Below, in pieces: positions 1 to 64,000 of a stretch of DNA of 64,000 nt. The notes below the pieces were generated by a model that did no database searches, was not told the origin of the DNA, and saw only the letters and a program-made list of their open reading frames with translations. The first letter of the stretch is position 1, and each line of letters opens with the position of its first letter. Made by a program: the position numbers and the translations under genes. Where the stretch lies: positions 640,001 through 704,000 of the forward strand of contig OZ244720.1 of assembly GCA_965219085.1 (NCBI GenBank), written 5' to 3'. The DNA is from Dehalococcoidia bacterium (GTDB lineage: Bacteria > Chloroflexota > Dehalococcoidia > UBA2979).

Positions 1-3000
1 TGACGCTGACAGCCTCGGAGGGGGCGGACAGCGTCACCAGGCAAGTCAGCGTCAGCGTCAGCGACGAGAACGAGGCGGGCGTGGTCACCATCTCGCCGGT
101 GCGACCCCGCGTCGGAACGGCGCTGACCGCGACCCTGACCGACCCCGACGGCAGCACGTCGGGCGTTGCCTGGACCTGGCAGCGCTCGACCGGGCCCACG
201 ACCTGGGCCGCCATCGACGGGGCCAACTCGAACAGCTACACGCCGACCGCCGCCGACGCGGGACACTACCTGCGCGTCACGGCGACCTACAGCGATGACC
301 ACGGCGCCGGTCAGACCGCCGGGGCGGTGGCGCCGTACACGCCGCTGGCCCACCAGTTGAGTGCGCTCTCGGTCGCCGGTCCGGCGCGCGGCCCGTACCC
401 GGCCTTCGACCCGGACGTGCTCCACTACGCCATGGAGTGCGCCGCCGGCCAGACCATCACGCTGACGTTGTCCGCGGCGCAGTCGAGCACGCGGCTGGCG
501 GTCAACGGGGTGCAGCGGCCCAGCCGGAACGCGGTGGTGGAGTTGACGGGGCTCGACGGCCACAGCGACATCCCCATCACCCTCAGCGGCGGCCAGGGCG
601 GCGCCACGACGTACGTCCTGCACTGTTTCGAGGAGGACTTCCCGGACATCTCGACGGAGCAGGGGCCCGGCGCCACGGAAGAGCTGATTGGTTTCTCCCT
701 CAATACCAACCCACCCTCCGGCAGATATGCCTACATGATGATCGTCGACAACAACGGGGTTCCCCGGGTCCACCGCCGATTCGGCCACCGCGTGACCCAC
801 TTTCGGCCCCAGAACAGCGAGACGTATCCATTCTCCTATTCGGTGCCGGACGCAGACACGAAGCACGTGTGGGTCCTGGTCGACCGGGCTCTGAACGAGT
901 TGGGCCGCGTGATCACCGTCGCGCCCCTGCTGGAGACCGATAAGCACGACTTCATCATCCTCGACAACGGGGACTACCTGCTGCTGTCCTACGAGCCGGT
1001 GCTGCGCGACTTCAGCTACCTGGTTGACAGCGACGGCAATCCGGCGCCTCCGAATCCGGACAGATCCGATGGGCTGTACCCCGTTACGGACACGGCAATC
1101 CAGATCAGGACCGCGGCGGGGGCGGCGAAGCTCACCTGGTACTCATGGGACCACATGGCGGCGCAGGACTGCGGGGGGAACCCGTTCGTCGCAGGCGACT
1201 GGGCACACGGCAATTCACTCTGGTTGGCCGACGGCGTCATCGTCGCCTCGTTCCGGCAGTGCGGGAAAGTGCTGGCCATCGACGCGGCGACCGGAGACGT
1301 CGTGTGGCGGCTGGGCCGCAGCTACCGCTCGCCCGAGGAGTGGGGGAGCGACGAACTGAGCGGGCACGGCCGCGGCGCGGGCCCGGCGCCGATGACCATC
1401 CTCAACGACCGCTATGGGGGGTTCTGCGGACAACATTCCGCGCAAGTCCTGGACAACGGGCATCTCCTGCTCTACGACAACGGCTTTCCCTGCATCCGGG
1501 ATCCGGCAACGGGACTCAACTGGCGGACGAGCGGGGAGTTCAGCCGGGCGGTGGAGTACGCCATCGACTCCGGCAACGGCGAGGCCATCTTCCAGCGCCA
1601 TCATTCGCTCCACGGGGACTTCAACAGGGGGGCGTGGGCTGCCGGCCTCGTCGAACCGATGGACAACGGTGACTGGCTGGTCAGCTGGGGCTTCAACGAC
1701 GGTGAAAGGATCACGGCGCTGCCTCCCGACGAGTCAATGACGCAGGTGGATCCGGACACGGGCACTGAAAAGTTCTCGATCAATATCCAGATCGACCACA
1801 GCGGGGAAGAGAACATCAATGTCCGTGCCTACCCGCTCAGTCCAACCGTGCTGGCGGACGAGCCCCTCGCGCTCGAAGCTGCGCTTCCGGCCAGCAGCCA
1901 CTCGTTGCTGTTCAACCCCGGCGCTCCCCAGGTCGTGGTGGCGTTCAGCCGCCCCGTCGTGGACTTCGACGCCGACACGACGTCGGTCAGCATCACGGGC
2001 GCGACGGTCGCGAGCGCCGGCGCGCACGTCATGGCGGGCCAGCCGGCCAACGCCTACCGCTTCACCCTCACGCCCGATGCGATGGGCACGATCACCTTCC
2101 GCCTCGTCGCCGATCAGCCCTGCGCCGGCGGCGGCATCTGCACCGCGGATGGAACCGTGTTGTCGGCCGGTGTGACCGTCACCATCGACAGGCCGGAACA
2201 CCCCGAGAACAGCACGAGGACGTCCGTCGCCGTCTCCACGGCCGGCGTCACGCTCGCCGGACCCGACAGCGCCGCCTTCGAGATCCGCGGCGGCGCGCTC
2301 CAGTTCCGCACCGCGCCCGACTTCGAGTCCCCGGCGGACGATGGCGGGGACAACAGCTACCAGGTCATGATCGTGGATAGTGGGAACCCCACGAGCCTGC
2401 GGGCCGTGACCATCGCCGTCAGCGACGTGAACGAGGCGCCGGCCTTCCCGGCCGGCGAGAGCGGCGCCCGCAGCATCCCCGAGAACACGGCTGCCGGCCT
2501 GAACATCGGCGCGCCGGTGGCGGCCACGGACGACGACAACGACGCGCTGACCTACACGCTGGGCGGAACGGACGCCGCGTCCTTCAGCATCGGTGCCTCG
2601 ACGGGCCAACTGCGCACCGATGCTGCGCCGGATCACGAGACGAAGAGCACCTACACGGTCAGCGTCGGGGTCCGCGACAGCCGGGACGCCAGCGGCAACC
2701 CGGACACGGCCACGGACGCCACGATCACGGTCACGATCGCCATCACCGACGTGAACGAGCCGCCGGCCATCAGTGGCGAAGCGGCCATCGACTTCGCCGA
2801 GCACGGCACGGGGATCGTCGCCACCTACACCGCCACCGACCCGGAGGACCGCACGCTCATCTGGGAGCCGCTGGCGGGGCCGGACCGCGGCCACTTCACT
2901 TTCAGCGGCGGCGTGCTGGGCTTCGTCGCGCCGCCCGACTTCGAGTCGCCGGCGGACTCGGGCGAGAACAACGAGTACCTGGTGCGAGTGCGGATCTCCG

Positions 3001-6000
3001 ACGGCGTGAACGACGACACACTCGACGTGACGGTGACCGTCACGAACGAAGAGGAGGCGGGGACGCTCACGCTGTCCTCGCAGCAGCCGCTGGTGGGCAC
3101 CTTGCTGACCGCCACGCTCGACGACCCCGACGGCGACATCACGAGCCTGTCGTGGACATGGGAGCGCTCGCAGAACCGGAGCAACTGGAGCGAGATCGAC
3201 GGCGCCACGACCGAGAGCTACACGCCGGCGGGCGACGACCTCGACCACTACCTGCGGGTGACGGCCTCGTATGACGACGGCGAGGGCGCCGACAAGAGCG
3301 CGCAGGAGACCTCGGACGAGCGGACGCAGGCCGCGCCGGTGATGAACGAGCCCCCCGCGTTCGCCGCCCAGATCACGCCCCGCTCGATCGAGGAGAACTC
3401 GGCCGAAGGCACGCCCGTCGGCGACCCGGTCACGGCCACGGACCCCGACGCCGACACGCTGTGGTACACGCTCTCGGGCATCGGCATCGCTGCGGACCTC
3501 TTCAGCATCGAGGGCGGCAGCGGTCAGATTCGGGTCGGGCAGGGCGCCGTGCTGGACTACGAGGCGCTGGGCGACGGGACGGGAACGTCCTTCTTCTACA
3601 CCGTCGCCGTCACCGCCGCGGACCCCTCGAACGCCAGCGCCAGCATCCTCGTCACGATCACCGTCACCGACGTCAACGAGCCGCCCGAGGCGACTGGCGA
3701 CGACGCCACGACCGATGAGGACACGGCGACCACGATCGATGTGCTGTTCAACGACAGCGACCCCGAGGGCGACACCCTGACCGTCTCGGTGAGCACGCCG
3801 CCCGCAAGCGGTGCGGTGACGGTGGAAGCCGACAACAGCATCACGTACGCGCCCGACGCCGACTTCCACGGCGTGGACACGTTCACCTACCAGGCGTCCG
3901 ACGGCGTCCACTCGTCCGCCGAGGCCATGGTCGTCGTGACGGTGAACCCGGTGAACGACCCACCCGACTTCCCCGCCGCTACGGCCGAGCGCTCCGTGGC
4001 CGCCAACGCAGCGGGAGGCAGGGAAGTCGGTCTACCGGTCGAGGCCACGGACCGCGACGGCGACACGCTCACCTATGTGCTCGCCGGCGCCGCGGGCCTC
4101 TTCGACATCGACCCGGACACGGGCCAGATCACCGTGGGTGTGGGAACCGTGCTCGACGCCTCGGTCCAGGACTCCTACCTGGTGACCGTGACGGCCACTG
4201 ACCCCTCCAGCGAGGAGGCGAGCATCGAGGTCACGATCACCGTGTCCAGCGCCGGCCCCACCGGCCCCGGCCCCGGCGGTGGCGGTGGCGGCGGCGGCGG
4301 TGGGCCGTCGGGGCCCTCGCCGAGCGAGCTGGACTTCGAGTGGAACGTGAAGCGCGACCTCGAGGCGCTGGACGGCGGCCACGACACGCCTACCGGCGCC
4401 TGGTCGGACGGCACGGTCCTCTGGGTACTCGAGAACGGAGACGGCGCCGGCGACGCCGTCTACGCCTACGACCTGAACACGGGCGAACGCCTGGAGGAGC
4501 GCGAGTTCGAACTCGACGAGCGCAACCGCGCGCCGCGCGGCGTCTGGTCCGGCGGCACGGTCATCTGGGTCTCCGACAGCGGCCAGGACCGCCTCTTCGG
4601 CCATGACCTCGAGACGGGCGAGCGGCTGCCGGAGCGCGACCTCGAGCTCGACGAGGACAACGGCGCCGCCCGCGGCATCTGGTCGGATGGCGAGAGGATG
4701 TGGGTGCTCGACGGCGGCAAGGACAGCCTCTTCGCCTACGACCTCGGGAGCGGCGCGCTGGTGGCCGAGTACGCCCTCGACGACGCCAACGGCGACCCTC
4801 ACGGGATCTGGTCGGACGGGGTGACGATCTGGGTCTCGGACCACGGCGCGAAGCGGCTCTTCGCCTACCGCCTCGAGGATGGGGAGCTCGTACGCAACAG
4901 CGAGGAGGAGTTCACGGAGCTGAGCAAGGCCTCCAACAACAGCCCGCGCGGCATCTGGTCGGACGGCGAGGTGATCTACGTGGCCGACGAGAGCGACGAC
5001 AAGGTCTACAGCTACAACATGCCCGACGCGATCGACGCGCGCCTCGCCTCGCTGACGCTGAGCGGCATCGAGATCGGGGAGTTCTCGGGGGACCGCACGG
5101 AGTACGACGGCGTCGCCGCCGAGGGCGTGACGGAGACGACGGTCGAGGCGGAGGCGCTGCAGCGCCGCACGACCGTCCTCATCGAGCCGGCCGACGCCGG
5201 CGGCGACGACACGAACGGCCACCAGCTGGCGCTGGAGGGCATCGACGCGATCACGGTCATCGTGACCTCGGCCGACGGCAGCCGCACGCGCGTCTACCGC
5301 GTGCGGCTGGAAGGCGGCGCGGCACAGGAAGCGCCCTGGCCGGAGTGCCTGCGCGGCGACATCGCCGCGGGCTTCAGCACCGTCGTCTACGCAGGCGGCA
5401 GCGTCGAGGAGCTGGAGGCCTGCGTGCGGAGCCTGCACGTCACCGCCCTCTACGTGCTCGACGAGGGCGAGTTCGTCTCCTACATCCTCGGCGCGCCTGC
5501 GTTCGTGAACCAACCGTTCGTCGAGCTGTTCGCCGACGGCCTTCCGCCCGTCACGCCGCTGGTCGCCGCAAGCAAGGGGCCGCCGCCCGGGGCGGACACG
5601 GACGGCGCCGGCGCGCGCCTCGCCGCGCTCACGCTGAGCGGCGTCGCCATCGGCGAGTTCTCGGGCGAGCGCACGCAGTACGCCGGCGCCGCGGGCGAGG
5701 GCGTGACGCAGACGACGGTCGGGGCCGCAGCCGTGCAGCACACGGCGCGCGTCCTCATCGAGCCCGCCGACGGCGACGGCGACGCGGCGAACGGCCACCA
5801 GGTGGGTCTGGAGGAGGGCGCGGAGATCGTCGTCACCGTGACCTCTCAGGACGGCAGCCGCACCAGGGTCTACCGGGTGTGGGTCGGGAGCGCAGAGGAA
5901 GAGCGGGAGCCCGCGCCGGAGTGCCTGCGCGGCGGCATCGCCGCGGGCTTCAGCCTCGTCGTCTACGAGGGTGGCGGCGTCGGGCAGTTGGAGGCCTGCG

Positions 6001-6161: not shown

Positions 6162-6289
6162 GCCCCCCTCGGAGCACGACACCGCTGCCACTGAGCGCGG
6201 CCGAGTTCGCTCCGCCTTCCGCGCAGAACGCTCTTGCCTGGCAAGCGGCGTGCGAGCTGCACTCCGCAGTGCGCCACCGCGTCGCTGGT

Positions 6290-6316
6290 TCTCAGGCAGT
6301 CGCTCATTGCCTGAGA
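6290..6316 (+). terminator. Conserved hairpin between upstream stop and downstream promoter (possible terminator, no U-tract)
   Basis: TCTCAGGCA-gtcgctcat-TGCCTGAGA is a perfect 9-bp inverted repeat. Repeated at 50500-50526 and degenerate at ~26050-26077. Confidence 0.5.
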
Positions 6317-6344
6317 GAGGCCACAAGGCCCTCAATCCATGGAC

Positions 6345-6421
6345 AGTCACGATATGTTCACACAATAAAGTCGTAAGTTCACGCCTCGTGCACTGACACC
6401 GAACCAACGAGCAGGAACAAT
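6345..6421 (+). promoter_or_regulatory. Putative activator-dependent promoter: two pairs of 11-bp-spaced direct repeats plus -35/-10
   Basis: AGTCAC(6345)-GTTCAC(6356)...GTTCAC(6377)-GTGCAC(6388), then CTGACA-N17-AACAAT. Same architecture occurs four times in the window. Confidence 0.65.
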
Positions 6422-6822
6422 TGCCCCGTTGAACCTGGGAGAGCGCAACACGCTCGCGCGAGGGGGCAACTGGTGCGTCGGACGGTCGCGAAGTCGAACG
6501 GGAACGCTCGGCAGGCAGGCGCAACTGCGCTGAACGAGCGCGCGTGTGGGTGTCGCGCCCGCGCTGCCAGAACGAACGTCCCCCCAAACTTGTTCCACCC
6601 GGATCGCGCCAGGCCGGTCCGGTTCCTTCGCCCGGCCCTAACGCTCTCGCCTCGCCGCACGCGCGGAGCGCACCCGTGCAGCAAGACGAACCACCGTCGC
6701 ACGTGATGCCCCAGAGATTGAGGGCCGTGGCGCCACCCCTCGCGAGCCGACGCTGCCGACGCGAGGAGGCCCAGCGGCGGCCACCCGCGCCGGGCGGGAG
6801 CACACACACCCGAGGCACAACG

Positions 6823-9800
6823 ATGACGCGCATCCGTAGGCCCGGCTTCCCCGTCCTGCTCGCCGCCCTCGCCCTGGGCGGCCTCATGCTGGCCCTGTCC
6901 CCGGCTGGCGCGCCGCCGGTGGACGCGCAGCAAGGCTCCGTCCCGGACCAGCCCACGGGACTCGTCACCACGGCGGTGCACGACTCCGTTGCGCTCAGCT
7001 GGAACGATCCGGGTGATACCAGCATCACCCACTACCAGGTATTGCGGCGCGACCGCGACGTCCACGCCGCCGGCGAGTTCGTCACCATCAAGGAGAACAC
7101 GGGCTCGCCGGCGACGAGCTACACCGACACGACGGTGGCGCCGGAGCGGCGCTACACCTACCGCGTCCAGGCGGTCAACCGGCACGGCGTCTCGCAGTGG
7201 TCGAGCTTCGCCCGGGCCGACACGCCGGCCGCGCCCGCGCCGCCGCCCGAGGACGAATCCTCGCCCGCCGATTTGGCGCCCAGCGGCCTCACCGCCGAAG
7301 CAGGCGCGGATGGCGGTGTTGCCCTGACCTGGACCGCCCCCGCCGCGGATGCCGCCGCGGTCACGGGCTACGAGCTGCTGCGTGCCGCGGGCAAGGCCGA
7401 GCCGGCCAGCCTCGCGCTGACAGCGGTTACCAGCACCGCCCACACCGACACGACTGCTACCCAAGCCGGCGAGACCTACAGCTATCAGGTCAAGGCCCTG
7501 CGAGACCAGGAGCAGAGCGAGGGCTCCAACCGGGCCAGCGTCACCTTGCCTCAACACACGCCAGGGCCCGGCGACGCCCAGGCCCGGCAGACGAAGCCCG
7601 GCACGCCCACGCTTGTCGAGGTCGGCGCGGGGGATACCAAGCTCCGGGTGATCTGGAAGGCCCCGCCACCAGAGTCCGGGGCCCCGATCAACACCTACGA
7701 CCTGCGCTACATCGAGACCAGCGCGGACGAGGCGATCGAAACCAACTGGACCGTGATCGAAACCATCTGGGACCGCCTGGGGATGGCCGGCCCCTACGAA
7801 TACACCCTCACCGCGTTGACCAACGGCACCGGCTACGACGTGCAGGTCCGGGCGCGCGCCGCGTCCGGTCCGGCCGGGACCGGCGACTGGTCGAACACCC
7901 TGTCGGACACGCCCGCCGCGGTGCCCGACGCCCCCGGCGCCCCCCAGGTGACCCGCAGCGATGGCATGCTCGACTTCACCTGGAGCGCCCCGGCGGACAA
8001 CGGCACGGGCGCCATCACCTCCTACGACCTGCGCTACCGCGCGGGCTCGGGCGACTGGACCGAGATCACCGGCGTCTGGACCGAGACCGACGGCGGGGCG
8101 CTGGCGGGCAACCTGCCCAACCTGACGAACGGCGTCACCTACCGCTTGCAGGTGCGGGCGGTGAACGCGAACGGCGGCGGCCTCTGGTCGGCCGGCGCGG
8201 AGGGCGTCCCCGCGACGCTGCCCGGCGTGCCCCGGTTCGTCACAAAATGGACCTCGGGGGACGGGTACCTCGGGGTGCTCTGGAGTAGCCCGGAATCCGA
8301 CGGCGGGGCGAATGTCACGCACTACGACCTGCGCTACATCGAGACCAGCGCGAACGCGATGATCGACGGCAACTGGACCGAGAAGCTGGACGTGTCCACC
8401 CGTGCCTCCAGCTACCGCCTCACGGGCCTGACCAACCTCGTCGAGTACCGCCTGCAGTTGCGCGCGGTCAACGACGTCGGCCCCGGCCCCTGGGACACCG
8501 GATTCAAGGACACGCCGCGGAAGCCTCCCGGGCCGCCCAGTATCGATCTCGTCACGTCCGCGGACGGGAGTCTGACGATCGCCTATTCGCCGCCGCCGGT
8601 AGTGGAGGGCGCCGGCGACATCGCGTCGTACAGGTTGAGTTGGATCCGCGGCCACACGGGCGGCCTCTGGAGCGTGGCGAACGACCTCCCGACGTCGGCG
8701 CCCTTGGAATACACCATCTCCGGGCTCAACAACGGCGCCAGATACACCCTCGAACTGCGGGTGTACGACGAGTTCGGAGATTACAACGACTCGGTTCGCG
8801 CCGTTGGTATCCCGGGCGCGCCGACGTCGCCCGCGGCGCCCACCATCGACGCGTTGACCGCGAGCAGCGGCGCCTTCAGCATCACCTGGGAAGCGCCCTA
8901 TAACGGCGGCGCCGCCATCACCTCCTACGACCTGCGCTACATCCGCAACGACGCCGCCAGCAAGGCCGACGCCAACTGGACGCTGGAGGAAGAGGTCTGG
9001 AGCGCCGGCGCCCTGTGGTACGCGCTGAGCGGTCTGACCGATTGGGTCGCCTACGACGTCCAGGTCCGGGCCGAGAACTCCGTGGGCGTGGGCGCTTGGT
9101 CCGCCACCAAGACCGGCACGCCCGGAACCGCGCCCTCCGCCCCCACCATCGACGAGGTCTACTACGTCGACGACGAGTTCAGGCGGATGCTGATGGAATG
9201 GACGGCTCCCACGAGCGACGGGGGGAGCACGATCACCAACTACCACGTGCGCTTCACGTACACGGCCAGCCAGCAGTCGGAGGTCTTCGACGACTTCTGG
9301 GATCCCAGTAAAGCGCTCGGCGTTGTGCTGCCGCTGAACCCCCACGACGTCGGGGTAGAGGTGGGCTTTGAGGTGCGAGCGGTCAACGTCGCGGCAGCCG
9401 GCCCCTGGTCCGCGATGACGACGTGGACGACGCCCGGCACGCCTGACGCTCCCACCGGTGTGACGGCCGTGGCCGCGGACCGGAAGATCATCGTCACCTG
9501 GGAGGCGGCTGTCACCGGCGACGCCGCGGTCATCGCCTACGACCTGCGCTACAGATGGATCATCCCGGGATCACCGAACAAGTTCTGGACCCTCATACGC
9601 GACGTTTGGACCCCTGGCTCGGGCGAGCTCCGATACACCCGGACGGGCGTGCCCAACCACCGCGAGCACGGCGTGCAGGTTCGGGCGAGGAATCACCTCA
9701 GCTTGATCGTCAGCGGGGAGGGGTGGTCCGCCACCGTGAGAGCGACACCCGTGCCCCTGCCGACGGTGCAGGGCGACGCCGCGGTGCTGTATGAGGAGAA

Positions 9801-13880: not shown

Positions 13881-13891
13881 CAATCTGCACT

Positions 13892-40796: not shown

Positions 40797-40813
40797 TGTC
40801 ACACCCGTGCCAC
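40797..40813 (+). promoter_or_regulatory. Possible direct-repeat pair upstream of G8
   Basis: TGTCAC-N5-TGCCAC with 11-bp period, resembling the site at 25525-25574. Confidence 0.35.
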
Positions 40814-40864
40814 ATCGGTCGTACACCATTGTCCTCTGTCGCAACACGCAGCGGAGGCACGACG

Positions 40865-50740: not shown

Positions 50741-50793
50741 TGCTGACCGCGTCCGGCGCTGCCTGCGCGCATCGCGCTACTAGAACAAACGTA

Positions 50794-50815
50794 CCCCCCC
50801 CCCCCCCCCCCCCCC
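50794..50815 (+). repeat. Poly-C tract (C22) in the G10 leader
   Basis: Direct read. Confidence 0.9.
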
Positions 50816-57000: not shown

Positions 57001-60000
57001 CGGCGCCGGCCAACGTCACGCTGACGGTCGCAGACGACGACGCCCCGTCGTGGACCGTGGAGGTGGGCTCCGCCTCGATCGCAGAGGACGCGGGCTCCAC
57101 GACGCTGACCGTGAGCACGGGCGGCGTGAGCTTCGCCGACGACCAGACGATCACGCTCGATCTCGGGGGCACGGCCACGGTGACGGACGACTACACGGTC
57201 AGTCCCGCGACGCTCACGCTGAAGGCGGGCAACAGCTCGGCCATGACGACCATCACCGCGGTCGACGACGCACTGGACGACGAGGCCGAGACGATCGTGA
57301 TCGCGGCCATGCACGGCGGCGCCCAGGTGGGCGCCTCGCGGACCATCACGATCACCGACGACGATGCCGCCAACAGGGCGCCCACCTTCGCCGAAGGCGC
57401 CTCGACGACGCGCGACGTGGCGGAGAACACGGCGTCGGGCCAGAACGTGGGCGCTGCGGTCGCCGCGACGGACCCGGACAGCGACGCACTGACCTACACC
57501 CTCGGCGGCACGGACGCGGTGTCGTTCGACATCGATTCGGCGAGCGGCCAGCTCCAGACCGCGACCGGGACGGTCCTCGACTACGAGGCCAGGACGAGCT
57601 ACTCGGTGACGGTCACGGTCACGGACAGCAAGGGCGGCAGCGCCGCCATCGATGTGACCATCAACGTCACGGACGAGGACGAGCCGCCGTCCGCGCCCAC
57701 GGAGCTGAGCGGGCTAGTGCTGAACGACGGCGCGAACGACCTGACCCTCACGCCGACCTTCGCCACGGACACGACGAGCTACGCGGCCTCGGTCGGCGGC
57801 GCCGTCTCGCAGATCACGGTGACGCCGACGAAGAGCGACACGGACGCCTCGGTGGAGTATCTCGACGCGAGAGACGCGGCGATTACCGACGCCGACGGGA
57901 CGGCCACCGGCCAGCAGGTGGATCTCGCGGTGGGCACGACCACGATCAAGGTCAAGGTCACCGCCGGGGACGCGATGACGACCGAGACCTACACGGTCGT
58001 CGTGACCCGCGCGGCGACGAGGCCCGCTCCTCCATCCGGGAAGGCGTGGGTCGAAGTCTGGAGCGATGACTTCGACGGTGACGTTCTGGACGCCACGAAG
58101 TGGCGTCCACAACGCGAGTCGCAGGATCTGAGTACCAGGACACACCATGGAAACACGATCTACTACCGTGGGGAAACAGACAACGTAGGTGTCGCAGACG
58201 GCAAACTGGTCTTGAAGAACACTCAGAGGCGTCTCAGCGCCACATCGAGTGAAGTGTTGACCGCGCGGATCTCGACCATGGACATCTACCACAGAAAGTA
58301 CGGGTACTTCGAGGCCAGTGTGAGGATCGCTCCGACCGCGGATGGCATCGATACGGTATTCTGGATGCAGGGCCCGCTTACGCACCGCCATTCCGAGAAT
58401 GGCGGTGTCGAGGGAGCTGCCGACGGTGGGGAAATCGACATCCTGGAGTCCTCGTTTATCAGGGACGGATTCTATCATGCATTGCATTGGGATTATGGCG
58501 GGTCAAGAAGGCGCAAAAGTGCGTCCGAGTGGGTCGATGTTACCTTGCATGATGGCGAGTACCACGTCTACGCGGTGGAGTGGAGTGCGGATCGGTACAG
58601 GTTCTATATTGACGGAAAGTTAACCTGGACCTATACGGGGGAAGGCGTATCCGGCGGAGACGAGTACATCGTATTGTCGACAGGTGTGAGCTGGGCCGGC
58701 GGCAATGCGCACACGGGTGATTTCCCGGTCGAGGCTCTGTTCGATTGGGTCAGGGTATATGAGTTGCAGGACAGCACGTCCGTCGATGCGCAAGCGGCGG
58801 AGCTCGGCTTTGGGACCCTCGGGGGGAGTGTTGCGCCGTCTGTCGCCCCCCCGCTTTCGGCGCCGGCGCCTGTCGCCCCCCCGCTTTCGGCGCCGCCGCC
58901 TGTCGCCCCCTCCCGGCTTTCGGCGCCGCCGCCTGTCGTTCCCGGTACCGGGAACGCCTTGACCCATGAGTCCCCCCCGGCCATCTCGTCGGTGGAGTTC
59001 GCTTACGATCCTGACTACGACGGCGATCCTGACTTCGACGGCCCGGACGACGACACTTATCCGCTGGCCTGGACGGTGAGCGTCGAGGTGAAGTTCGATC
59101 GGGACATCCATGTCCAGGATCTGGAGAACGGAGGCCCGCGCCTGGAACTGGACATCGGCGGCGTGCCCAAACAGGCCCTCTATTACAGCAAATCGTCCCG
59201 CGCGATTGTCTTCTTCTACAGAATCCAGGACGGCGACGAAGACATGGACGGCATTTCGATCGGCGCGGACAAGCTGGATCTCAACGGCGCCAGCATCGTC
59301 GGGACAACAGGCACGGACGCCGTCTTGGGCCACGCCGCCGTGCCCGACGATGCCGGCCACAAGGTGGACGGCGTGCGGCCGGTCCTCCAAGCCGCCGAGA
59401 TATCGACGGACGGCGCGACGATCGTCCTCACCTACGACGAGGCTCTTCAGACCACCATCAACAACCCGTCTAACCCCAAGAAGCGGCGCACGACGGCTAC
59501 TCCGTATCGCTACACGGTCAGCGTCGACGGCGTTCCCCGCGGGGTCAGCGACGTTTCAGCGAGTGGCAGCACCGTGACGCTGGAGCTCGAATCCGCGGTG
59601 ACGGCCGGCCAGACGGTCGCCGTGAGCTACCGCGAACCGAGCGTTCACGACGATAGGAAGGCGGTGCAGAACCTGCGCGGCACCGACGCGGCGAGCTTCA
59701 CGAACCGTACGGTGACCGTCGCCGGCGACGACACGGCGGGGGTGGTGGTGGTCCCGACGGTGGTGTCGGTGGCCGAGGGCGGCGCGGCGGGCAGCTACAC
59801 GGTGGTGCTGGCCACGCAGCCGCCGGGGACGGTGACGGTGACGGTGGGCGGCGCCGGCGACGACGTCGCCGCGGAGCCCGCCGCGCTGACGTTCACGGCC
59901 TCGACGTGGGACACCGCGCAGACGGTGACGGTGACCGCGGTCGACGACAGCGTCGCCGAGGGCGAGGAGACGGCGACGCTGACCCACGCGGTGAGCGGCT

Positions 60001-63000
60001 ACGGGGCCGTCACCTCCGCCGACAGCGTGACGGTGTCCATCACCGACGACGACGGAAACACCCCGCCCACGGCCTCCGCGTCCGTCACGCCGGACGCCCC
60101 GGCCGAGTTGACACCCGAGATGAAGGTCGAGGTGCTCGGCGGCAACACGGTGTCGCTGGACGGCGGCGGGAACGACCCCGACGTTGGCGAAGTCCTGAGC
60201 TACGCCTGGACCAGCGACGGAGGCGGCACGTTCGCCGACGCGGCGGCGGCGGACACCACGTGGACCGCGCCGGCGGCCACGGCCGACGAGCAGACGGTTA
60301 CGCTCACCCTCACCGTCAGCGACAGCGCCTCGGCCACGGCCGAGGCGAGCGTCGAGGTAACGGTGGCGGACAACGTCCCGCTGACGGCCAGCTTCGACAC
60401 CATTCCCGTCATGCCGCACGCAGGGAACAACTTCGCCGTGAGGATCCTGTTCAGCGAACGGATCCGCGCAGGGCTGACCGACTTCAGGAATCACGCAGTC
60501 GAGGTGACGAACGGCACGGTGTACGACGGAAGACGAGTGGATGGCCGGCGCGACCTGCTGGAGCTCGAGATCGACCCGGACAGCGCCTCGGCGGACGTGA
60601 CCATCGTGCTCGCCCCGAGCCGGGCCTGCCCGCAGAGCAACTCGATCTGTACCTACGCCGGAAAGCAGCTCTCGGCCGAGCTGCGGGGGGTCGTCGAGTC
60701 CACCAACACCCCGGTCTTCAGCGAAGGGGCCACGGCCACGCGCGAGGTCGCCGAGAACACTGCGGCGGACACCGACATCGGGGGGGCGGTGACGGCCACC
60801 GACGTGGACAACGACACGCTCAGCTACTCGCTCGGCGGGACGGACGCAGCCTCGTTCGCCATCGTCTCGACCAGCGGCCAAGTCCAGACGAAGGCGGACC
60901 TCGACCACGAGACGAAGTCGAGCTACGCGGTCACGGTCACGGTCACGGATGGCAAGGGCGGCAGCGCCAGCATCGAGGTGACCATCAACGGCACGGACGA
61001 GGACGAGCCGCCGTCGAAGCCCGAGGCGCCGACGGTGACGGGAGCGGGCCCGAGCAGCGTCACGGCGACCTGGCTGGCGCCGGCCAACGCGGGCAAGCCG
61101 GACATCAGCGACTACGACGTGCAGTACCGGGAGGCAGGCACGACCGGGTCGTGGAGTGACGGGAGCCACACCGGCACGGACACCTCGGCGACGATCACGG
61201 GCCTCAGCGCGAACACCTCCTACGACGTGCAGGTGCGGGCCACCAACGACGAGGGCACGAGCGACTGGTCCGACTCGGGCAGCGGGGCGACCTCCACCAA
61301 GCCGGTGGTGACCCTGTCGCTGTGGTCCGACTCGATCGCGGAAGGCGGAGTCACCACGGTGAGGGGAACGGTCTCGCCCGCATCCGCGACGCAGTTCACG
61401 GTGACGGTCTCGGTGACGCCCGTGGCCCCGGCGGTGGCGGCCGACTTCACGCTGAGCGCGAACACCAACCTGACCTTCGCCGCGAACGCGACCGCGAGCA
61501 CCGGCATCGTAACGATCACGGCGACGGCGAACACGGTACACACGGAGGACAAGACGCTGACGGTGTCGGGCGCGACCACGGCGGCGGCGGTGACGGCGCC
61601 GGCCAACGTCACGCTGACGGTCGAAGACGACGACGCCCCGTCGTGGACCGTGGAGGTGGGCTCCGCCTCGATCGCAGAGGACGCGGGCTTCACGGCCGTG
61701 ACCGTGAGCACGGGCGGCGTGACCTTCGCCGACGACCAGACGATCACGCTCGATCTCTCGGGCACGGCCACGGAAACGGACGACTACACGGTCAGTCCCG
61801 CGACGCTCACGCTGACGGCGGGCAACAGCTCGGCCATGACGACCATCACCGCGGTCGACGACGCACTGGACGACGAGGCCGAGACGATCGTGATCGCGGC
61901 CATGCACGGCGGCGCCCAGATCGGCGCCTCGCGGACCATCACGATCACCGACGACGATGCCGCCAACAGGGCGCCCACCTTCGCCGAAGGCGCCTCGACC
62001 ACGCGCAAGGTGGCGGAGAACACGGCCTCGGGCGAGGACATCGGCGCGCCGGTCTCGGCCACGGACGCGGACAGCGACGCACTGACCTACACCCTCGGCG
62101 GCACGGACGCGGCGTCGTTCGACATCGATCCGGCGAGCGGCCAGCTCCAGACGAGTGCGGCCCTCGACCACGAGACGGCGCCGAGCCACACGGTGACCGT
62201 GACCGCGGACGACGACAAGGGCGGGACCGCCACCATCTCCGTGACCATCGAGGTCACGAACGAGACTGAGCCGCCGGAAGAGCCCGGCGCGCCCGACAAC
62301 GTGCGGGCATTGTCGGGCAACGCCGAGCTCGTCGTCACCTGGGGCGAACCCAACGACGGCGGCAGCGCCATCACCGAGTACACCCTGCAATGGAAGTCCG
62401 GCGGCGAGAGCTTCAGCTCGTCCCGGCAGAGGACGATTGCCGCGCCGTCACGCAGCGACACGATCCCGTCTCTGACCAACGGCACCGAGTACGCGGTGCG
62501 GGTTAAGGCCACGAACACCCACGGCGACAGCGACTGGTCCGTCGAGGCGACGGGCACCCCCCGTTCCAGCATCACCACCGGTGGCGGGGGCGGCGGTGGT
62601 GGTGGCCCGTCGGGGCCCTCGCCGAGCGAGTTGGACTTCGAGTGGAACGTGAAGCGCGACCTCGAAGCGCTGGACGGCGGCCACGACACGCCGACCGGCG
62701 CCTGGTCGGACGGCACCGTCCTCTGGGTACTCGAGAACGGAGACGGCGCCGGCGACGCCGTCTACGCCTACGACCTGAACACGGGCGAACGCCTGGAGGA
62801 GCGCGAGTTCGAACTCGACGAGCGCAACCGCGCGCCGCGCGGCGTCTGGTCCGGCGGCACGGTCATCTGGGTCTCCGACAGCGGCCAGGACCGCCTCTTC
62901 GGCCATGACCTCGAGACGGGCGAGCGGCTGCCGGAGCGCGACCTCGAGCTCGGCGAGCGCAACGGCGACGCCCGCGGGATCTGGTCCGATGGTGAGACGA

Positions 63001-64000
63001 TGTGGGTGCTCGATGGCGGCAAGGACAGCGTCTTCGCCTACGACCTCGGGAGCGGCGAGCTGGTGGCGGAGTACGCCCTCGACGACGCCAACGGCGACCC
63101 TCACGGGATCTGGTCGGACGGGGTGACGATCTGGGTCTCGGACCACGGCGCGAAGCGGCTCTTCGCCTACCGCCTCGAGGATGGGGAGCTCGTGCGCAAC
63201 AGCGAGGAGGAGTTCACGGAACTGAGCAAGGCGAGCAACAACAGTCCGCGGGGCATCTGGGGGAACGCCGACGTGATCTACGTGGCCGACGAGAGCGACG
63301 ACAAGGTCTACAGCTACAACATGCCCGACGCGATCGACGCGCGGCTCGCCTCGCTCACGCTCAGCGGCATCGAGATCGGGGAGTTCTCGGGGGACCGCAC
63401 GGAGTACGACGGCGTCGCCGCCGAGGGCGTGACGGAGACGACGGTCGAGGCGGAGGCGCTGCAGCGCCGCACGACCGTCCTCATCGAGCCGGCCGACGCC
63501 GGCGGCGACGACACGAACGGCCACCAGCTGGCGCTGGAGGGCATCGACGCGATCACGGTCACCGTGACCTCGGCCGACGGCAGCCGCACGCGTGTCTACC
63601 GCGTGCGCCTGGGAGACCCGGACCGGCAGGCGACGCCCGATCCCTGGACGCACTGCTTGCGCGGCGACGTCGCCGAGGGCTTCAGCCTCGTCGTCTATGA
63701 GGGTGGCAGCGTCGAGGAGCTGGTCACCTGCGCGGAGAGTCGCGATGTCGTGGCCCTCTACGCGCTGCACGGCGGCGTCTACGTCTCGTACATCCTTGGA
63801 GCGCCGGGGTTCGTGAACCAACCATTCGCCGAGCTGTTCGCCGATGGTGTCCCCCCGGTCATGCCGCTGGTCGCTGGGAGCAGCGGACCGCCATCAGCGG
63901 ACCCGAACCAAGGCGACGGCGCCCTGTTGCCGTGGCCGGAGTGCCTGCGCGGCGAGATCGCCGCGGGCTTCAGCCTCGTCATCTACGAGGGCGGTAGCGT
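51066..64000 (+). CDS. Giant secreted protein G10 (>4300 aa, runs off the window): FN3 x2, two [beta-sandwich-GH16-Ig-like-SwmB-like] blocks, Calx-beta-like repeats, cadherin/FN3, PKD-like, C-terminal module
   Basis: Absent from the ORF track because it has no stop in the window. AGGAGG RBS, ATG 51066 and a signal peptide. Frame checked at the GH16 (WSDDFDG, KYGYFEA, EIDILE at 52581 and 58431) and at the C-module (62622). Confidence 0.92.
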   Translation, partial: MAHTARPRLAILFAALAALLALSLSGAPAQAQDGSVPGKPTGLSSEASHDSVSLTWDDPGDGSITHYQVFRRDRDVHAAGEFVTVTEHTGSAATSYTDDTVEPERRYVYRVKAVNAHGASTWSGHRRASTPAATPTPTPAPEPEPTPDPADLDPADLAPSGLEASLAENRVTLTWTAPAEDAASVTGYEVLRAQGSAALTTLAADTGNTDTTYTDSGVTGDLDGYRYQVKALRGGDASQGSNVAGVIPSAHAGAIVPLADVTLISNLVLNDGTNDLTLTPTFATDTTSYAASVGGAVSQITVTPTKSDTDASVEYLDAKDAAIADADGTATGQQVDLAVGTTTIKVEVTAGDAMTTETYTVVVTRAATRPAPPSGKAWVEVWSDDFDGDVLDATKWLPRRESQNLKTRTHHGNTIYYRRETDNISVADGKLVLKNTQRRLSDTSSEVLTASIYTQDTYRRKYGYFEASLRIAPTADGIHTGFWMQSLLSGSHSENGGVEGAADGGEIDILESALIRDRFYHALHWDNGGSRSRTSASRRVDVTLHDGEYHVYAVEWSAGRYRFYVDGKLTWTYTGEGVSDGDEYIILATNVSWAGGNAHTGDFPVEALVDWVRVYELQDSTSVDAQAAEPGFGTLGGSVAPSVAPPRLSAPPPVVPGTGNALSRGSRPAISSVEFAYDPDYASYDPHYAGPDDDTYPLAWTVSVEVNFDQDIDVQDLEDGGPRLELDIGGVPKQALYYSKSSRAIVFFYRIQDGDEDMDGISIGADKLALNGASIVGTTGTDAVLDHAAVPDDAGHKVDGVRPVLQAAETSTDGAAIVLTYDEALQPTMNLSKEQQRTTATPYDYTVSVDGVPRGVSDVSASGSTVTLELESAVTAGQTVAVSYREPSVHDDTRAVQNLRGTDAASFTNRTVTVADDDPQVTVGFEHSAYSVAEGASVAVSVVLSADPERTVTIPLTSTNQGGASAADFSGVPASLEFSTTAMSRTFAFAAADDDVDDDGEGVTVGFGTLPAGVNAGTPATAAVSIIDGDVPTVSVSFGSGPYSVDEGETVTVTVSLDEDPERTVVIPLTTTLAGGASAADFSVPANVTFAAGETSKTFEFDAADDDVDDDGEGVTVGFGTLPAGVNAGTPAMVAFEIGDDDVPTVSVSFVASTYSVAEGGSVTVTVSLSADPERTVVIPLTTTLGGGASAADFSVPANVTFDAGDTSQAFTFAAADDGEDDDGEGVTVGFGTLPAGVNAGTPATAAVSIIDGDVPIVSVSFGSGSYSVDEGGSVTVTVSLSADPERTVVIPLTTTLGGGASAADFSVPANVTFDAGDTSQAFTFAAADDGEDDDGEGVTVGFGTLPAGVNAGTPATAAVSIIDDDVPIVSVSFGSGSYSVDEGGSVTVTVSLSADPERTVVIPLTTTLGGGASAADFSVPANVTFAAGETSKTFEFDAADDGEDDDGEGVTVGFGTLPAGVNAGAPAMVAFEIGDDDVPIVSNRSPAFSEGSSTTRDVPENSSAGTALGTAVAASDAEGDTLTYALGGTDAASFDFSTATGQISTGSGVTYDHEAKATYTVTVTVDDGNGGAAGIDVTINVTDEPEPPNAPAAPTVSRTADANDSLDVSWTAPANDGRPALKHYDIQYREGGGAWETGPQTQTGTTAKITSLNAGTSYEVQVRAANDEGNGAWSPAGTGSTNAAPVFDDGEETTREVAENTASGADIGAAVAATDADNDTLSYSLGGTDAASFAIVSTSGQIQTKAALDYEEDDEYSVTVTVTDGSGGEASIDVTIDVTDEDEPPSKPEAPTVTGAGPSSVTATWLAPANAGKPDISDYDVQYRQQGGTAWTDWTHTSTDTSATITGLSANTSYEVQVRATNDEGTSNWSDSDSGATSTKPVVTLSLSSHSIVEGGVTTVTGTVSPASATPFTVTVSVTPVAPAVAADFTPSANANLTFAANATASTGGVTITATANTVHTEDKTLTVSGATTAAAVTAPANVTLTVADDDAPSWTVEVGSASIAEDAGSTTLTVSTGGVSFADDQTITLDLGGTATVTDDYTVSPATLTLKAGNSSAMTTITAVDDALDDEAETIVIAAMHGGAQVGASRTITITDDDAANRAPTFAEGASTTRDVAENTASGQNVGAAVAATDPDSDALTYTLGGTDAVSFDIDSASGQLQTATGTVLDYEARTSYSVTVTVTDSKGGSAAIDVTINVTDEDEPPSAPTELSGLVLNDGANDLTLTPTFATDTTSYAASVGGAVSQITVTPTKSDTDASVEYLDARDAAITDADGTATGQQVDLAVGTTTIKVKVTAGDAMTTETYTVVVTRAATRPAPPSGKAWVEVWSDDFDGDVLDATKWRPQRESQDLSTRTHHGNTIYYRGETDNVGVADGKLVLKNTQRRLSATSSEVLTARISTMDIYHRKYGYFEASVRIAPTADGIDTVFWMQGPLTHRHSENGGVEGAADGGEIDILESSFIRDGFYHALHWDYGGSRRRKSASEWVDVTLHDGEYHVYAVEWSADRYRFYIDGKLTWTYTGEGVSGGDEYIVLSTGVSWAGGNAHTGDFPVEALFDWVRVYELQDSTSVDAQAAELGFGTLGGSVAPSVAPPLSAPAPVAPPLSAPPPVAPSRLSAPPPVVPGTGNALTHESPPAISSVEFAYDPDYDGDPDFDGPDDDTYPLAWTVSVEVKFDRDIHVQDLENGGPRLELDIGGVPKQALYYSKSSRAIVFFYRIQDGDEDMDGISIGADKLDLNGASIVGTTGTDAVLGHAAVPDDAGHKVDGVRPVLQAAEISTDGATIVLTYDEALQTTINNPSNPKKRRTTATPYRYTVSVDGVPRGVSDVSASGSTVTLELESAVTAGQTVAVSYREPSVHDDRKAVQNLRGTDAASFTNRTVTVAGDDTAGVVVVPTVVSVAEGGAAGSYTVVLATQPPGTVTVTVGGAGDDVAAEPAALTFTASTWDTAQTVTVTAVDDSVAEGEETATLTHAVSGYGAVTSADSVTVSITDDDGNTPPTASASVTPDAPAELTPEMKVEVLGGNTVSLDGGGNDPDVGEVLSYAWTSDGGGTFADAAAADTTWTAPAATADEQTVTLTLTVSDSASATAEASVEVTVADNVPLTASFDTIPVMPHAGNNFAVRILFSERIRAGLTDFRNHAVEVTNGTVYDGRRVDGRRDLLELEIDPDSASADVTIVLAPSRACPQSNSICTYAGKQLSAELRGVVESTNTPVFSEGATATREVAENTAADTDIGGAVTATDVDNDTLSYSLGGTDAASFAIVSTSGQVQTKADLDHETKSSYAVTVTVTDGKGGSASIEVTINGTDEDEPPSKPEAPTVTGAGPSSVTATWLAPANAGKPDISDYDVQYREAGTTGSWSDGSHTGTDTSATITGLSANTSYDVQVRATNDEGTSDWSDSGSGATSTKPVVTLSLWSDSIAEGGVTTVRGTVSPASATQFTVTVSVTPVAPAVAADFTLSANTNLTFAANATASTGIVTITATANTVHTEDKTLTVSGATTAAAVTAPANVTLTVEDDDAPSWTVEVGSASIAEDAGFTAVTVSTGGVTFADDQTITLDLSGTATETDDYTVSPATLTLTAGNSSAMTTITAVDDALDDEAETIVIAAMHGGAQIGASRTITITDDDAANRAPTFAEGASTTRKVAENTASGEDIGAPVSATDADSDALTYTLGGTDAASFDIDPASGQLQTSAALDHETAPSHTVTVTADDDKGGTATISVTIEVTNETEPPEEPGAPDNVRALSGNAELVVTWGEPNDGGSAITEYTLQWKSGGESFSSSRQRTIAAPSRSDTIPSLTNGTEYAVRVKATNTHGDSDWSVEATGTPRSSITTGGGGGGGGGPSGPSPSELDFEWNVKRDLEALDGGHDTPTGAWSDGTVLWVLENGDGAGDAVYAYDLNTGERLEEREFELDERNRAPRGVWSGGTVIWVSDSGQDRLFGHDLETGERLPERDLELGERNGDARGIWSDGETMWVLDGGKDSVFAYDLGSGELVAEYALDDANGDPHGIWSDGVTIWVSDHGAKRLFAYRLEDGELVRNSEEEFTELSKASNNSPRGIWGNADVIYVADESDDKVYSYNMPDAIDARLASLTLSGIEIGEFSGDRTEYDGVAAEGVTETTVEAEALQRRTTVLIEPADAGGDDTNGHQLALEGIDAITVTVTSADGSRTRVYRVRLGDPDRQATPDPWTHCLRGDVAEGFSLVVYEGGSVEELVTCAESRDVVALYALHGGVYVSYILGAPGFVNQPFAELFADGVPPVMPLVAGSSGPPSADPNQGDGALLPWPECLRGEIAAGFSLVIYEGGS
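51864..53810 (+). repeat. ~1.95-kb intragenic duplication (copy 2 at ~57714-59720) containing GH16
   Basis: Offset 5850 bp, rising to 5910 after a 30-bp repeat expansion. Confidence 0.95.
53812..55505 (+). repeat. Five tandem 336-bp (112-aa) Calx-beta-like repeats
   Basis: Anchor CGTCACGGTGGGCTTCGGGACGCTGCC at 54071, 54407, 54743, 55079 and 55415. Motifs VSF...YSV.EG and DD..DDDGE. Confidence 0.9.
56120..57560 (+). repeat. ~1.4-kb intragenic duplication (copy 2 at ~60710-62150): cadherin-FN3-Calx-like block
   Basis: Offset ~4590 bp, near-identical DNA. Confidence 0.9.
62622..64000 (+). repeat. Conserved C-terminal module copy 6 (truncated by window end)
   Basis: PSELDFEWNVKRD... to CLRGEIAAGFSLVIYEGGS at the window edge. 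Confidence 0.95.

Follow-up and report, generated by a model that had tools for sequence, protein, structure and literature searches.

The 64,000-nucleotide stretch of DNA analyzed here (the window) lies in a tandem array of genes for giant surface proteins. The members are paralogous and Sec exported, and an unnamed C-terminal module is common to all of them. The array is a paralog family in concerted evolution, an organization of a known kind built around a module that is itself new. On balance, we think that the constant module serves as a non-covalent anchor to the wall or S-layer and is homogenized by recombination. Neither the module nor the arrays were described in the open-access papers and bioRxiv preprints that we searched.

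The assembly is a single 3.3-Mb contig (92.7% complete, 69% G+C), and the window covers the central part of an array of 10 genes and 130 kb. Six giant open reading frames (A, B, C, E, H, and I) are all on the plus strand (Table 1). Their frames and domains agree with the first-pass annotation, which had described six giants with different cargo (ASST; FN3; S8 plus spondin; variable Ig-like domains; S8; and two GH16) that switch at a poly-Gly run of 9 to 13 residues into a common, near-identical module of about 520 residues. We found such a run ahead of the module in all six genes. The module itself is about 525 residues long, and its DNA is 85 to 100% identical among the six; the variable cargo upstream is often unalignable. 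Direct-repeat families of 300 nucleotides occur in six copies with 84 to 100% identity and constant spacing. Judging from the sequence, gene B probably starts at the Met codon at 6823, which would give it the same signal peptide as gene E. Likewise, the likely start of gene H is 43749, with the signal peptide of gene C.

Table 1. Array features in the window, numbered from its first nucleotide
Feature	Position	Strand	Description
Gene A, 3' part	3-6161	+	5' end open in window; 4735-aa open frame in genome; cargo ASST, cadherin, Big_9
Gene A poly-Gly	4275-4304	+	10 residues; 618 residues after
Class 1 intergenic unit	6162-6585		Candidate promoter region
Gene B	6544-13452	+	Cargo FN3 array (7 FN3 stretches) and cadherin
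Gene B poly-Gly	11836-11865	+	10 residues; 528 residues after
Gene B module	11866-13449	+	Propeller ~11866-12600, cadherin-like ~12601-12870, tail 1 ~12874-13161, tail 2 ~13162-13449
Gene C	14301-22778	+	Signal peptide, S8 protease and P-domain, Spondin_N, cadherins
Gene C poly-Gly	21165-21200	+	12 residues, then 525 residues; module to 22775
Regulator 1	22976-25456	-	One polypeptide: GAF-PAS-HisKA-HATPase-REC-OmpR-type DNA-binding (Trans_reg_C); divergent from gene E
Decayed module remnant	25641-25964	+	Last tail and 3' flank of A-type gene; in-frame TAG; repeat copy 25660-25871 within
Class 1 intergenic unit	26043-26596	+	Candidate promoter region
Gene E	26597-37792	+	Signal peptide; cargo FN3, cadherin, Ig-like
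Gene E poly-Gly	36167-36196	+	10 residues, then 531 residues; module to 37789
Regulator 2	37716-40055	+	GAF-HisKA-HATPase-REC-OmpR-type (Trans_reg_C); true start downstream of 37716
Gene G	40796-43495	+	Family-type signal peptide, 3 FN3, ~340 aa without family match; module absent
Gene H	43629-50372	+	Cargo S8 and P-domain
Short FN3 remnant	43629-43748	+	Ahead of gene H signal peptide
Gene H poly-Gly	48759-48797	+	13 residues, then 524 residues; module to 50369
Class 1 intergenic unit	50373-50810		Candidate promoter region
Gene I	51066-63998	+	3' end open in window; 4396-aa open frame in genome; signal peptide, 2 GH16 stretches, 7 Calx-beta, FN3, cadherin
Gene I poly-Gly	62580-62606	+	9 residues, then at least 464 residues (window end cuts module); module from 62607

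A 5-bladed beta-propeller opens the module, followed by a cadherin-like sandwich and then by a Cys-containing alpha/beta tail of ~85 residues that is present twice. Unlike this propeller-cadherin-tail-tail order, gene A has propeller-cadherin-like-tail-cadherin-like-tail. The propeller is made of five repeats of ~45 residues. An AF2 model of the propeller and sandwich (pLDDT 81) had the 5-bladed glutaminyl cyclases 3nol and 3mbr as its best Foldseek matches (E 5.7e-11; TM 0.75 and 0.74 on the target; rmsd 3.5 to 4.9). At the level of fold only, the modeled propeller belongs with the five-bladed propellers of the glutaminyl-cyclase/NHL/YVTN-like type. The sandwich matches PF12733 at module residues 247 to 333 (33.0 bits; gathering cut-off, 24.2). 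In a model of the tail pair (pLDDT 73), each tail runs strand-helix-strand-strand-helix-strand and has two invariant Cys residues. Scanned against Pfam at E ≤ 1, the module gave NCH3, Cadherin-like, Lactonase, and nothing else, and against NCBIfam it gave nothing significant. We rejected the match to NACHT C-terminal helical domain 3 (PF22729). It scored 40.5 against a cut-off of 27, yet profile positions 35 to 64 of 74 alone align, they fall on propeller beta strands in the model, and a NACHT domain is absent.

The tail had no Pfam or NCBIfam match. Foldseek against the PDB gave 0 matches at E ≤ 1e-3, phmmer against PDB sequences gave nothing at E ≤ 1, and the ESM Atlas gave no usable match. 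VIA-align against 48,161 chains had a best Z of 4.1, which is within noise and does not establish likeness of the modeled tail to known wall-binding folds; nor does a missing match make its fold new. The lack of a recognizable wall-binding fold in the Foldseek and VIA searches counts against an anchor. The dN/dS ratio of the module is 0.32 to 0.53, and therefore the module is under purifying selection. A ratio of 0.3 to 0.5 indicates relaxed constraint for a domain that binds a single fixed ligand, which also counts against an anchor.

The module is not special to the window array. The genome contains 33 open frames with propeller and tail, in at least eight genomic regions, and together they make up 273 kb, or 8.3% of its DNA. 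The tail ends no more than 13 residues from the stop codon in 29 of these 33 members, and 29 of 33 have a run of at least four Gly residues ahead of the module. A signal-peptide-like N terminus was found in 23 by a strict rule and in at least 3 more by eye, and the remainder look truncated. In public data, 5,450 cluster representatives matched at E ≤ 1e-3, revealing thousands of unnamed relatives. Among the best 150 of these, 89 have a tail within 25 residues of the C terminus, 9 have one elsewhere, and 52 have none. A C-terminal location of the module on signal-peptide proteins, which the first-pass annotation had suggested checking, is thus the rule for the tail (89 of 98 tail-bearing proteins among the best 150) but not without exception. 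Of these 89, 76 have a Gly run ahead of the module. However, 52 of the best 150 relatives contain propeller or propeller-sandwich units as internal tandem repeats, and such units are also found within some giants of the present genome. Therefore, the propeller part is a general extracellular building block and not an anchor as such. Short proteins barely larger than the module also exist (e.g., P0076, 521 residues).

The tail was restricted to one Dehalococcoidia family in a phylum-wide search, for which alignment A3 included propeller columns from three longer rows; the tail pair alone was searched at the order level. Two apparent outside carriers, G045 and G152, were rejected because their matches sit in the propeller columns of the search alignment and not in the tail. 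Species of the genus differ in copy number (0 to 34 matches). More than 20 independently assembled MAGs contain the same architecture, at 79 loci in all and with arrays of 4 to 7 neighbors among them, and a Gly run was found at 59 of 66 junctions in related MAGs.

Several observations indicate recombination between members. The identity of paired DNA sequences rises abruptly at the poly-Gly run, for instance from 47 to 56% before it to 95 to 100% after it for genes B and I. Blocks of 100% identity swap partner along the module. Of 45 pairs, 9 reached a global p ≤ 0.008 in a test for mosaic identity runs (500 permutations), some contrasts being inflated by gene A and a gene at 588 kb of the genome, which differ in module architecture. 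Therefore, gene conversion has occurred. There is also a 3-kb segmental duplicate comprising module, intergenic unit, and the 5' end of the next gene, and gene C has a 95.7% duplicate across 7.7 kb at 596 to 604 kb of the genome. On a module tree, the 10 array copies and one copy at 2616 kb form one clade (support, 100), and arrays in other genomes likewise form clades, although this clustering could partly reflect recent duplication instead of conversion. The family thus combines the within-array likeness, mosaic tracts with changing partners, and segmental duplicates of concerted evolution. This bears out the earlier proposal that the module is a homology block for recombination.

Long near-identical modules are hard to assemble, and in four runs the short-read unitigs end right where the poly-Gly run meets the module. 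Such a picture might come from a repeat that was collapsed or wrongly joined during metagenome assembly. However, the copies are not identical but 85 to 100% mosaics with distinct variants, the genome is in one contig, and the architecture recurs in the independent MAGs and thousands of public proteins described above. Also, short unitigs from all four runs of one study, which may include the source sample, contain the cargo of gene B up to the hinge with no differences. We regard the chance of an assembly artifact as negligible.

Gene conversion between copies, repeated upstream units, and a copy number that varies so widely within the genus might instead suggest programmed antigenic or phase variation. 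Here, silent cassettes would donate sequence to one or a few expressed genes, and the module would guide the recombination. However, each of the six genes in the window is complete and has a signal peptide and an upstream unit to itself, and their variable parts are entire different domain sets rather than allelic segments. We found no recombinase in the window, and no inverted repeat switch or frame-shifting homopolymer. Conversion makes the constant parts alike and brings no diversity to an expressed copy, and the sole partial copy is a decayed 3' end. Programmed variation is therefore very improbable. Frame-shifting phase variation at the poly-Gly run was rejected as well, because its codons are a mixture of GGC, GGT, GGA, and GGG and the run lengths differ by whole codons. 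The term cassette-like, used in the first-pass annotation, does not fit an array of complete same-strand genes, with neither silent partial cassettes nor a recombinase in the window.

At least three further decayed members had also been proposed. We confirmed a single clear decayed module copy in the window, the remnant downstream of regulator 1, whose DNA is 87 to 93% identical to the ends of gene A and the 588-kb gene. The others were not confirmed. The short FN3 remnant ahead of gene H is also present, and gene G starts like a family member, with its type of signal peptide and FN3, but has no module. For this analysis, intergenic DNA was compared by blastx with the giant proteins only; a version with all open reading frames was swamped by spurious antisense frames at this G+C content. 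Repeated upstream units do exist, in two intergenic classes that are candidate promoters. Class 1 has at least seven copies with 82 to 99% identity, upstream of B, E, and I and at four sites outside the window, and class 2 precedes genes A, C, and H as well as two others. The two regulators reported in the array are also present, with 51 to 55% mutual identity. Their paralogs adjoin module-bearing genes at 5 of 5 loci. These fused sensor-kinase/response-regulator genes beside the arrays probably control them.

What might the module do? It had been suggested to supply export or attachment. Export is the less likely of the two because export from a monoderm cell needs nothing beyond Sec, whereas attachment is plausible for these signal peptide-bearing proteins. 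We favor a wall or envelope anchor because a tail homologue occurs in an SH3b DD-carboxypeptidase and the genome is without sortase or SLH. The sortase profile PF04203 had 0 matches in the genome but did match in control genomes, and SLH (PF00395) was found neither in the module nor anywhere in the genome. In place of LPXTG-type ends, the proteins have a short, non-hydrophobic, Pro/Ala-rich C-terminal tail. The constant module had no Pfam match to CWB2, choline-binding, LysM, or SH3b domains (E ≤ 1). There was also no NCBIfam or Pfam match to T9SS Por CTD, PEP-CTERM, GlyGly-CTERM, or PGF-CTERM, and no C-terminal hydrophobic helix.

The tail homologue lies between the SH3b region and a DacB-type DD-carboxypeptidase domain (hhalign 96.7%, E 4e-10, 70 columns). 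This SH3b-tail-DD-carboxypeptidase architecture is kept in ~71 of 99 family genomes, including genera without giant-gene tails. However, the tail-like domain of this enzyme could serve in substrate or partner recognition and not in wall binding. The genome encodes three PBPs, and according to passages of PMC10284905, cultivated Tepidiforma is a monoderm with peptidoglycan and an S-layer. In the giant proteins, catalytic heads are toward the N terminus and the module is at the C terminus, which is the polarity of anchored fibrillar adhesins.

Alternatively, the proteins might be released, with the propeller/tail module, like a lectin or CBM, steering diverse enzymes and adhesins to a common habitat ligand such as a host or matrix polymer. 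The module would then be a target-binding unit. Its 5-bladed fold is in common with sugar- and ligand-binding propellers (NHL, YVTN, and glutaminyl-cyclase type), and the internal repetition of propeller-sandwich units in other proteins and a tail without a recognizable wall-binding fold are consistent with this. Also, GH16, S8, and ASST cargo acts on extracellular polymers. However, an enzyme set free from the cell would hardly need a stalk of 20 to 40 Ig-like domains. An anchor is also a better fit to the strictly C-terminal tail and the conserved hinge, and to the location of the tail homologue beside SH3b in a conserved peptidoglycan enzyme. Release would also leave 33 giant secreted proteins in a genome that has no other anchoring system of the sortase or SLH kind. 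We consider target binding unlikely.

The tail pair might also bind protein rather than a wall polymer, as an assembly module that plugs into a scaffold like a dockerin or inserts into the S-layer lattice. Its tandem duplication at the extreme C terminus of many different enzymes is reminiscent of cellulosomal dockerins, and the short proteins that are nearly module only, such as P0076, are compatible with it. So is the Tepidiforma S-layer, for which passages of PMC10284905 report unexplained protein complexes. However, there was no Pfam dockerin or cohesin match in the module, we identified no candidate partner or scaffold gene, and the DD-carboxypeptidase homologue suggests the wall zone and not a scaffold. 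An assembly role therefore seems distinctly improbable.

In the explanation that we favor, the organism is a monoderm member of the Chloroflexota (Dehalococcoidia; relatives are titled Tepidiformaceae) whose giant proteins follow one plan. After an N-terminal signal peptide comes a variable distal part with a protease, glycosidase, sulfotransferase, spondin, or LRR-type head. A long FN3/cadherin/Calx stalk, a Gly-rich hinge, and the constant module with one or two disulfide-type tails follow. If the module is an anchor, it would bind, chiefly through the tail pair, to the wall or S-layer of the producing cell and keep the protein there non-covalently, in place of the absent sortase and SLH systems, so that the enzymatic or adhesive head could stand tens of nanometers off the cell. 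Module DNA and repeated intergenic units are the substrate for unequal crossing-over and gene conversion. Such recombination homogenizes copies within an array, duplicates genes or gene parts, and leaves remnants. This turnover could put new cargo on a proven handle and might make gene content strongly different between species. More tentatively, the tail might be a new fold for binding peptidoglycan or a wall polymer, borrowed from the housekeeping DD-carboxypeptidase and fused behind the poly-Gly hinge. It would then be a portable handle, with module-guided recombination continually re-sorting dozens of giant host-interaction proteins. The hinge may double as a processing site that releases cargo.

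The claim that no named system has this organization was too strong, even though the module itself is unnamed. Several well-known paralog families join a variable passenger to a homogenized C-terminal anchor, including the CWB2 proteins of Clostridioides difficile and the bab/sab genes of Helicobacter pylori. The C. difficile Cwp family has ~30 paralogous surface proteins in which different functional domains are joined to a common, tandem-repeated, non-covalent CWB2 module, and many of the genes are clustered. The family described here is similarly monoderm, with many paralogs, varied domains on one common module, and a gene cluster, and its wall binding is putative. However, it has no CWB2 match (Pfam); its 525-residue propeller, sandwich, and two tails are C-terminal behind a poly-Gly hinge, and the proteins are 5 to 10 times larger. 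The H. pylori bab/sab/hop proteins (~700 residues) are anchored by an outer membrane beta-barrel in a diderm cell and are encoded at dispersed loci that undergo gene conversion and form chimeras. They too have a variable N-terminal part and a conserved C-terminal segment that conversion keeps near-identical in paralogs. In contrast, the Chloroflexota proteins have a soluble module in a monoderm, tandem arrays, and entire different domain sets as cargo. In cellulosomal enzymes, a small, internally duplicated C-terminal dockerin fixes different catalytic cargo to the cell surface. The likeness is in the many cargo types on an internally duplicated C-terminal module, but here the repeated unit is an ~85-residue alpha/beta tail with a Cys pair and not a Ca-binding EF-hand pair. 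Finally, giant LPXTG or SLH adhesins of monoderms share the signal peptide, distal head, Ig-like repeat stalk, and C-terminal anchor. Here there is no sortase gene, SLH domain, or hydrophobic C terminus, and therefore any anchoring would go via a folded domain.

Cadherin and FN3 domains are enriched in sponge-associated MAGs, are abundant in Chloroflexota, and have been read as attachment factors (PMC8163846, in part). These are the same cargo domain types as in our array. The passages concerned give domain counts and contain no account of a C-terminal module, hinge, arrays, or concerted evolution. The arrays account for the large differences in cadherin and FN3 counts among related MAGs and for the difficulty of assembling such genomes. 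They also provide a clean case of concerted evolution in nature, with the turnover of very large genes driven by a constant domain. With ~8% of one genome devoted to one display family, there is now a direct handle on surface retention in monoderm Chloroflexota free of sortase and SLH. The tail domain is small, unnamed, and easily expressed, and its homologue in a conserved wall enzyme provides a concrete binding hypothesis. If that hypothesis is true, the tail would define a sortase- and SLH-independent mode of surface display in monoderm Chloroflexota.

Each of the six giant genes in the window, which has a G+C content of 69%, encodes a single poly-Gly hinge followed by a constant C-terminal module (see table). 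Pfam reproduced the cargo types that the first-pass annotation had read for all six. Catalytic heads lie toward the N terminus, a stalk of FN3/cadherin/Calx-type domains is in the middle, and the module is C terminal. The same annotation had proposed a switch at the poly-Gly run into a near-identical module, and this was seen with two approaches. A repeat search of the window returned six-copy families of 300 nt with 84-100% identity and constant spacing. In a sliding identity profile, pairs with unrelated cargo went from unalignable to near-identical at the hinge (for B/I, from 47-56% to 95-100% DNA identity). The Gly codons are mixed, so changes in hinge length stay in frame.

Coordinates of array features in the window
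Feature	Position	Strand	Cargo or domains	Poly-Gly residues	Residues after poly-Gly
A	3-6161	+	Arylsulfotransferase (Pfam)	10	618
B	6544-13452	+	Seven FN3 stretches (Pfam)	10	528
C	14301-22778	+	S8 protease, P-domain, Spondin_N (Pfam)	12	525
Regulator 1	22976-25456	-	GAF(-PAS)-HisKA-HATPase-REC-OmpR type, one polypeptide		
Module remnant	~25641-25964				
E	26597-37792	+	FN3, cadherin, Ig-like domains (Pfam)	10	531
Regulator 2	37716-40055	+	GAF(-PAS)-HisKA-HATPase-REC-OmpR type, one polypeptide		
G	40796-43495		No module		
H	43629-50372	+	S8, P-domain (Pfam)	13	524
I	51066-63998	+	Two GH16 stretches, seven Calx-beta (Pfam)	9	at least 464

Public short reads were used to examine gene B. Four runs of one study, which may include the source sample, contained 93-95% of the sampled words of its cargo. 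Unitigs from all four covered 2,940 nt (8926-11865) without differences and stopped precisely where the final Gly codon of the hinge ends (11865/11866), and summed word depth was 10-35 times higher in module bins than in cargo bins. Therefore, the unitig ends and the rise in depth confirm the junction and the repeat status of the module, with the hinge as the exact repeat start in independent short-read graphs.

After the hinge come a short conserved Pro/Ser-rich motif, five propeller repeats of ~45 aa, a cadherin-like sandwich (PF12733 in Pfam), and two copies of an ~85-aa tail. An AlphaFold model of the repeats and the sandwich had a pLDDT of 81. The best Foldseek matches to the propeller part were the five-bladed glutaminyl cyclases 3nol and 3mbr (E 5.7e-11, TM 0.75/0.74 on the target), followed by NHL and YVTN propellers. 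Each tail is modeled as strand-helix-strand-strand-helix-strand (pLDDT 73) and has two invariant Cys residues. It had no match in Pfam, NCBIfam, or PDB sequences, nothing in Foldseek at E ≤ 1e-3, a best Z of only 4.1 among 48,161 chains (VIA), and no usable match in the ESM Atlas. The module, and its tail above all, is unnamed in the libraries searched. No description of the module was found in open-access papers. PF22729 ("NACHT C-terminal helical domain 3," NCH3) did match at 12208-12297 of the window and at the same place in every module. We consider this spurious, although it is above the gathering cutoff, because it spans just 30 of the 74 profile positions, on beta strands of the propeller model. 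There was no NACHT domain alongside it. Most public relatives carry a precomputed PF22729 match as well; the model looks to be catching propeller repeats, an annotation trap.

The source genome is a single 3.31-Mb contig, 92.7% complete, in which the window occupies positions 640001-704000 and the array around it comprises ten plus-strand giant genes at 588-719 kb. Genome-wide, 33 open frames encode propeller and tail; they are spread over at least eight regions and make up 273 kb (8.3% of the genome). In 29 of the 33, no more than 13 residues separate the tail from the stop, and 29 have a run of at least four Gly residues before the module. A strict rule identified a signal-peptide-like N terminus in 23 of 33, and inspection by eye showed one in at least three more; the remaining members look truncated. 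The module of gene A, like that of the gene at 588 kb, is a variant (propeller-sandwich-tail-sandwich-tail). An 8,473-aa open frame (contig positions 1867599-1893017, minus strand) has an internal module with four tails, followed by sandwich-tail-tail and propeller-sandwich units, and does not end in a tail; it resembles an in-frame fusion of several family genes.

Along the alignment of the window giants, blocks of identity switch partner. A and B are 100% identical over ~800 nt, C and H are 98-100% identical starting ~550 nt upstream of the hinge, and other stalk blocks are common to A/H and A/C. A Sawyer-type run test of the ten array modules (1,548 ungapped columns, 332 polymorphic sites, 500 permutations) gave a global p ≤ 0.008 in 9 of 45 pairs, with some contrasts inflated by the two variant-architecture genes. 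By blastn, the gene at 596 kb is a whole-gene duplicate of C (95.7% over 7.7 kb), and a 3-kb unit of module, intergenic DNA, and the next gene's 5' end is repeated at 94.7%. In a FastTree analysis of the propeller-sandwich part (105 rows: the 33 own copies and 72 of 79 loci from other genomes, 7 being left out because their propeller is incomplete), the ten array copies and a copy at 2616 kb formed one clade with support of 100. Copies from arrays in other genomes likewise grouped by array, while older paralog lineages were common to several genomes. dN/dS was 0.32-0.53.

The two regulators described earlier are present, each fusing a sensor kinase, a receiver, and an OmpR-type DNA-binding domain in one cytoplasmic polypeptide. 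All five regulator paralog loci in the genome adjoin module-bearing genes; those outside the window are at 628.9, 1911.3, and 379 kb, the last being fragmented. Repeated upstream intergenic DNA falls into two classes. Of the "at least three further decayed members" first proposed, one was confirmed as a clear module remnant; the window also contains an FN3 remnant ahead of H and the module-less gene G. The latter has the family signal peptide and three FN3 domains, beyond which its C-terminal ~340-400 aa (42296-43492) are without a Pfam match. More decayed sandwich and tail fragments lie outside the window at contig positions 627746-628427 (sharing 97% identity with the end of gene A) and 759169-759765. 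A 2.3-kb tract of tandem repeats also lies between array genes at 624531-626896; it matches itself at offsets of ~111 and ~340 nt with 85-88% identity.

The array joins variable passengers to a constant C-terminal handle, in clusters of paralogs that evolve in concert. This organization is of a known kind, as in CWB2 proteins, Helicobacter pylori bab/sab, and dockerin enzymes. The earlier view that no named system is organized this way is too strong; it is the module itself that is unnamed. By sequence-defined criteria, the array fell outside every known system tested.

When 1.84 billion cluster representatives were searched with the module (phmmer), 5,450 matched at E ≤ 1e-3 and 1,549 at E ≤ 1e-30. 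Among the best 150 of the 5,450, the tail was within 25 residues of the C terminus in 89 (76 with a Gly run ahead of the module), elsewhere in 9, and absent in 52; in place of a tail, those 52 had propeller or propeller-sandwich units repeated in tandem in their interior. Scanning species-representative genomes for the tail pair found 79 loci, all in Dehalococcoidia, Tepidiformaceae, or Chloroflexi metagenome-assembled genomes (MAGs), with arrays of 4-7 neighbors in several and a Gly run at 59 of 66 complete junctions. Among 300 genomes sampled across the phylum, the tail had no match outside the source genome; the search model also held propeller columns, where two outside matches fell. Within the window's order, a single family in the collection, the tail pair occurred in 54 of 99 genomes (17 of 18 within the genus), at 0 to 34 per genome, also among assemblies of 1-4 contigs. 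The tail pair has 695 longer relatives, all of them unnamed or "hypothetical," with LRR, S8, ASST, glucose/sorbosone dehydrogenase, PQQ, and Calx domains among their cargo. A published study reports that sponge MAGs are enriched in cadherin and FN3 domains (PMC8163846).

The genome, at 92.7% completeness, has no sortase or SLH domain, and it encodes three PBPs. Cultivated Tepidiforma is described as a monoderm with peptidoglycan and an S-layer (PMC10284905). Furthermore, a DacB-type DD-carboxypeptidase gene, L098 (contig positions 2057343-2059280, minus strand), encodes a tail homologue between an SH3b-like region and its S11 domain (hhalign with the giants' tail, 96.7%, E 4e-10, 70 columns). 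The carboxypeptidase assignment comes from Pfam S11 (E 7.5e-57) and PDB 3mfd (E 1.3e-43); among 14 public relatives, S11 was matched in 12 and SH3b (PF08239) in 6. L098-type matches including the tail-like part occurred in ~71 of 99 family genomes, some in genera without a strong giant-gene tail match, and in none of 300 other genomes of the phylum. The module might instead act in a lectin-like manner to target proteins that are released, which we consider improbable, or be a dockerin-like or S-layer-insertion module, which seems less probable still. The lack of sortase and SLH domains, the monoderm wall and S-layer, the tail homologue in a DD-carboxypeptidase, and the N-to-C order of head, stalk, and module together favor a role for the module as a non-covalent anchor in the cell envelope.
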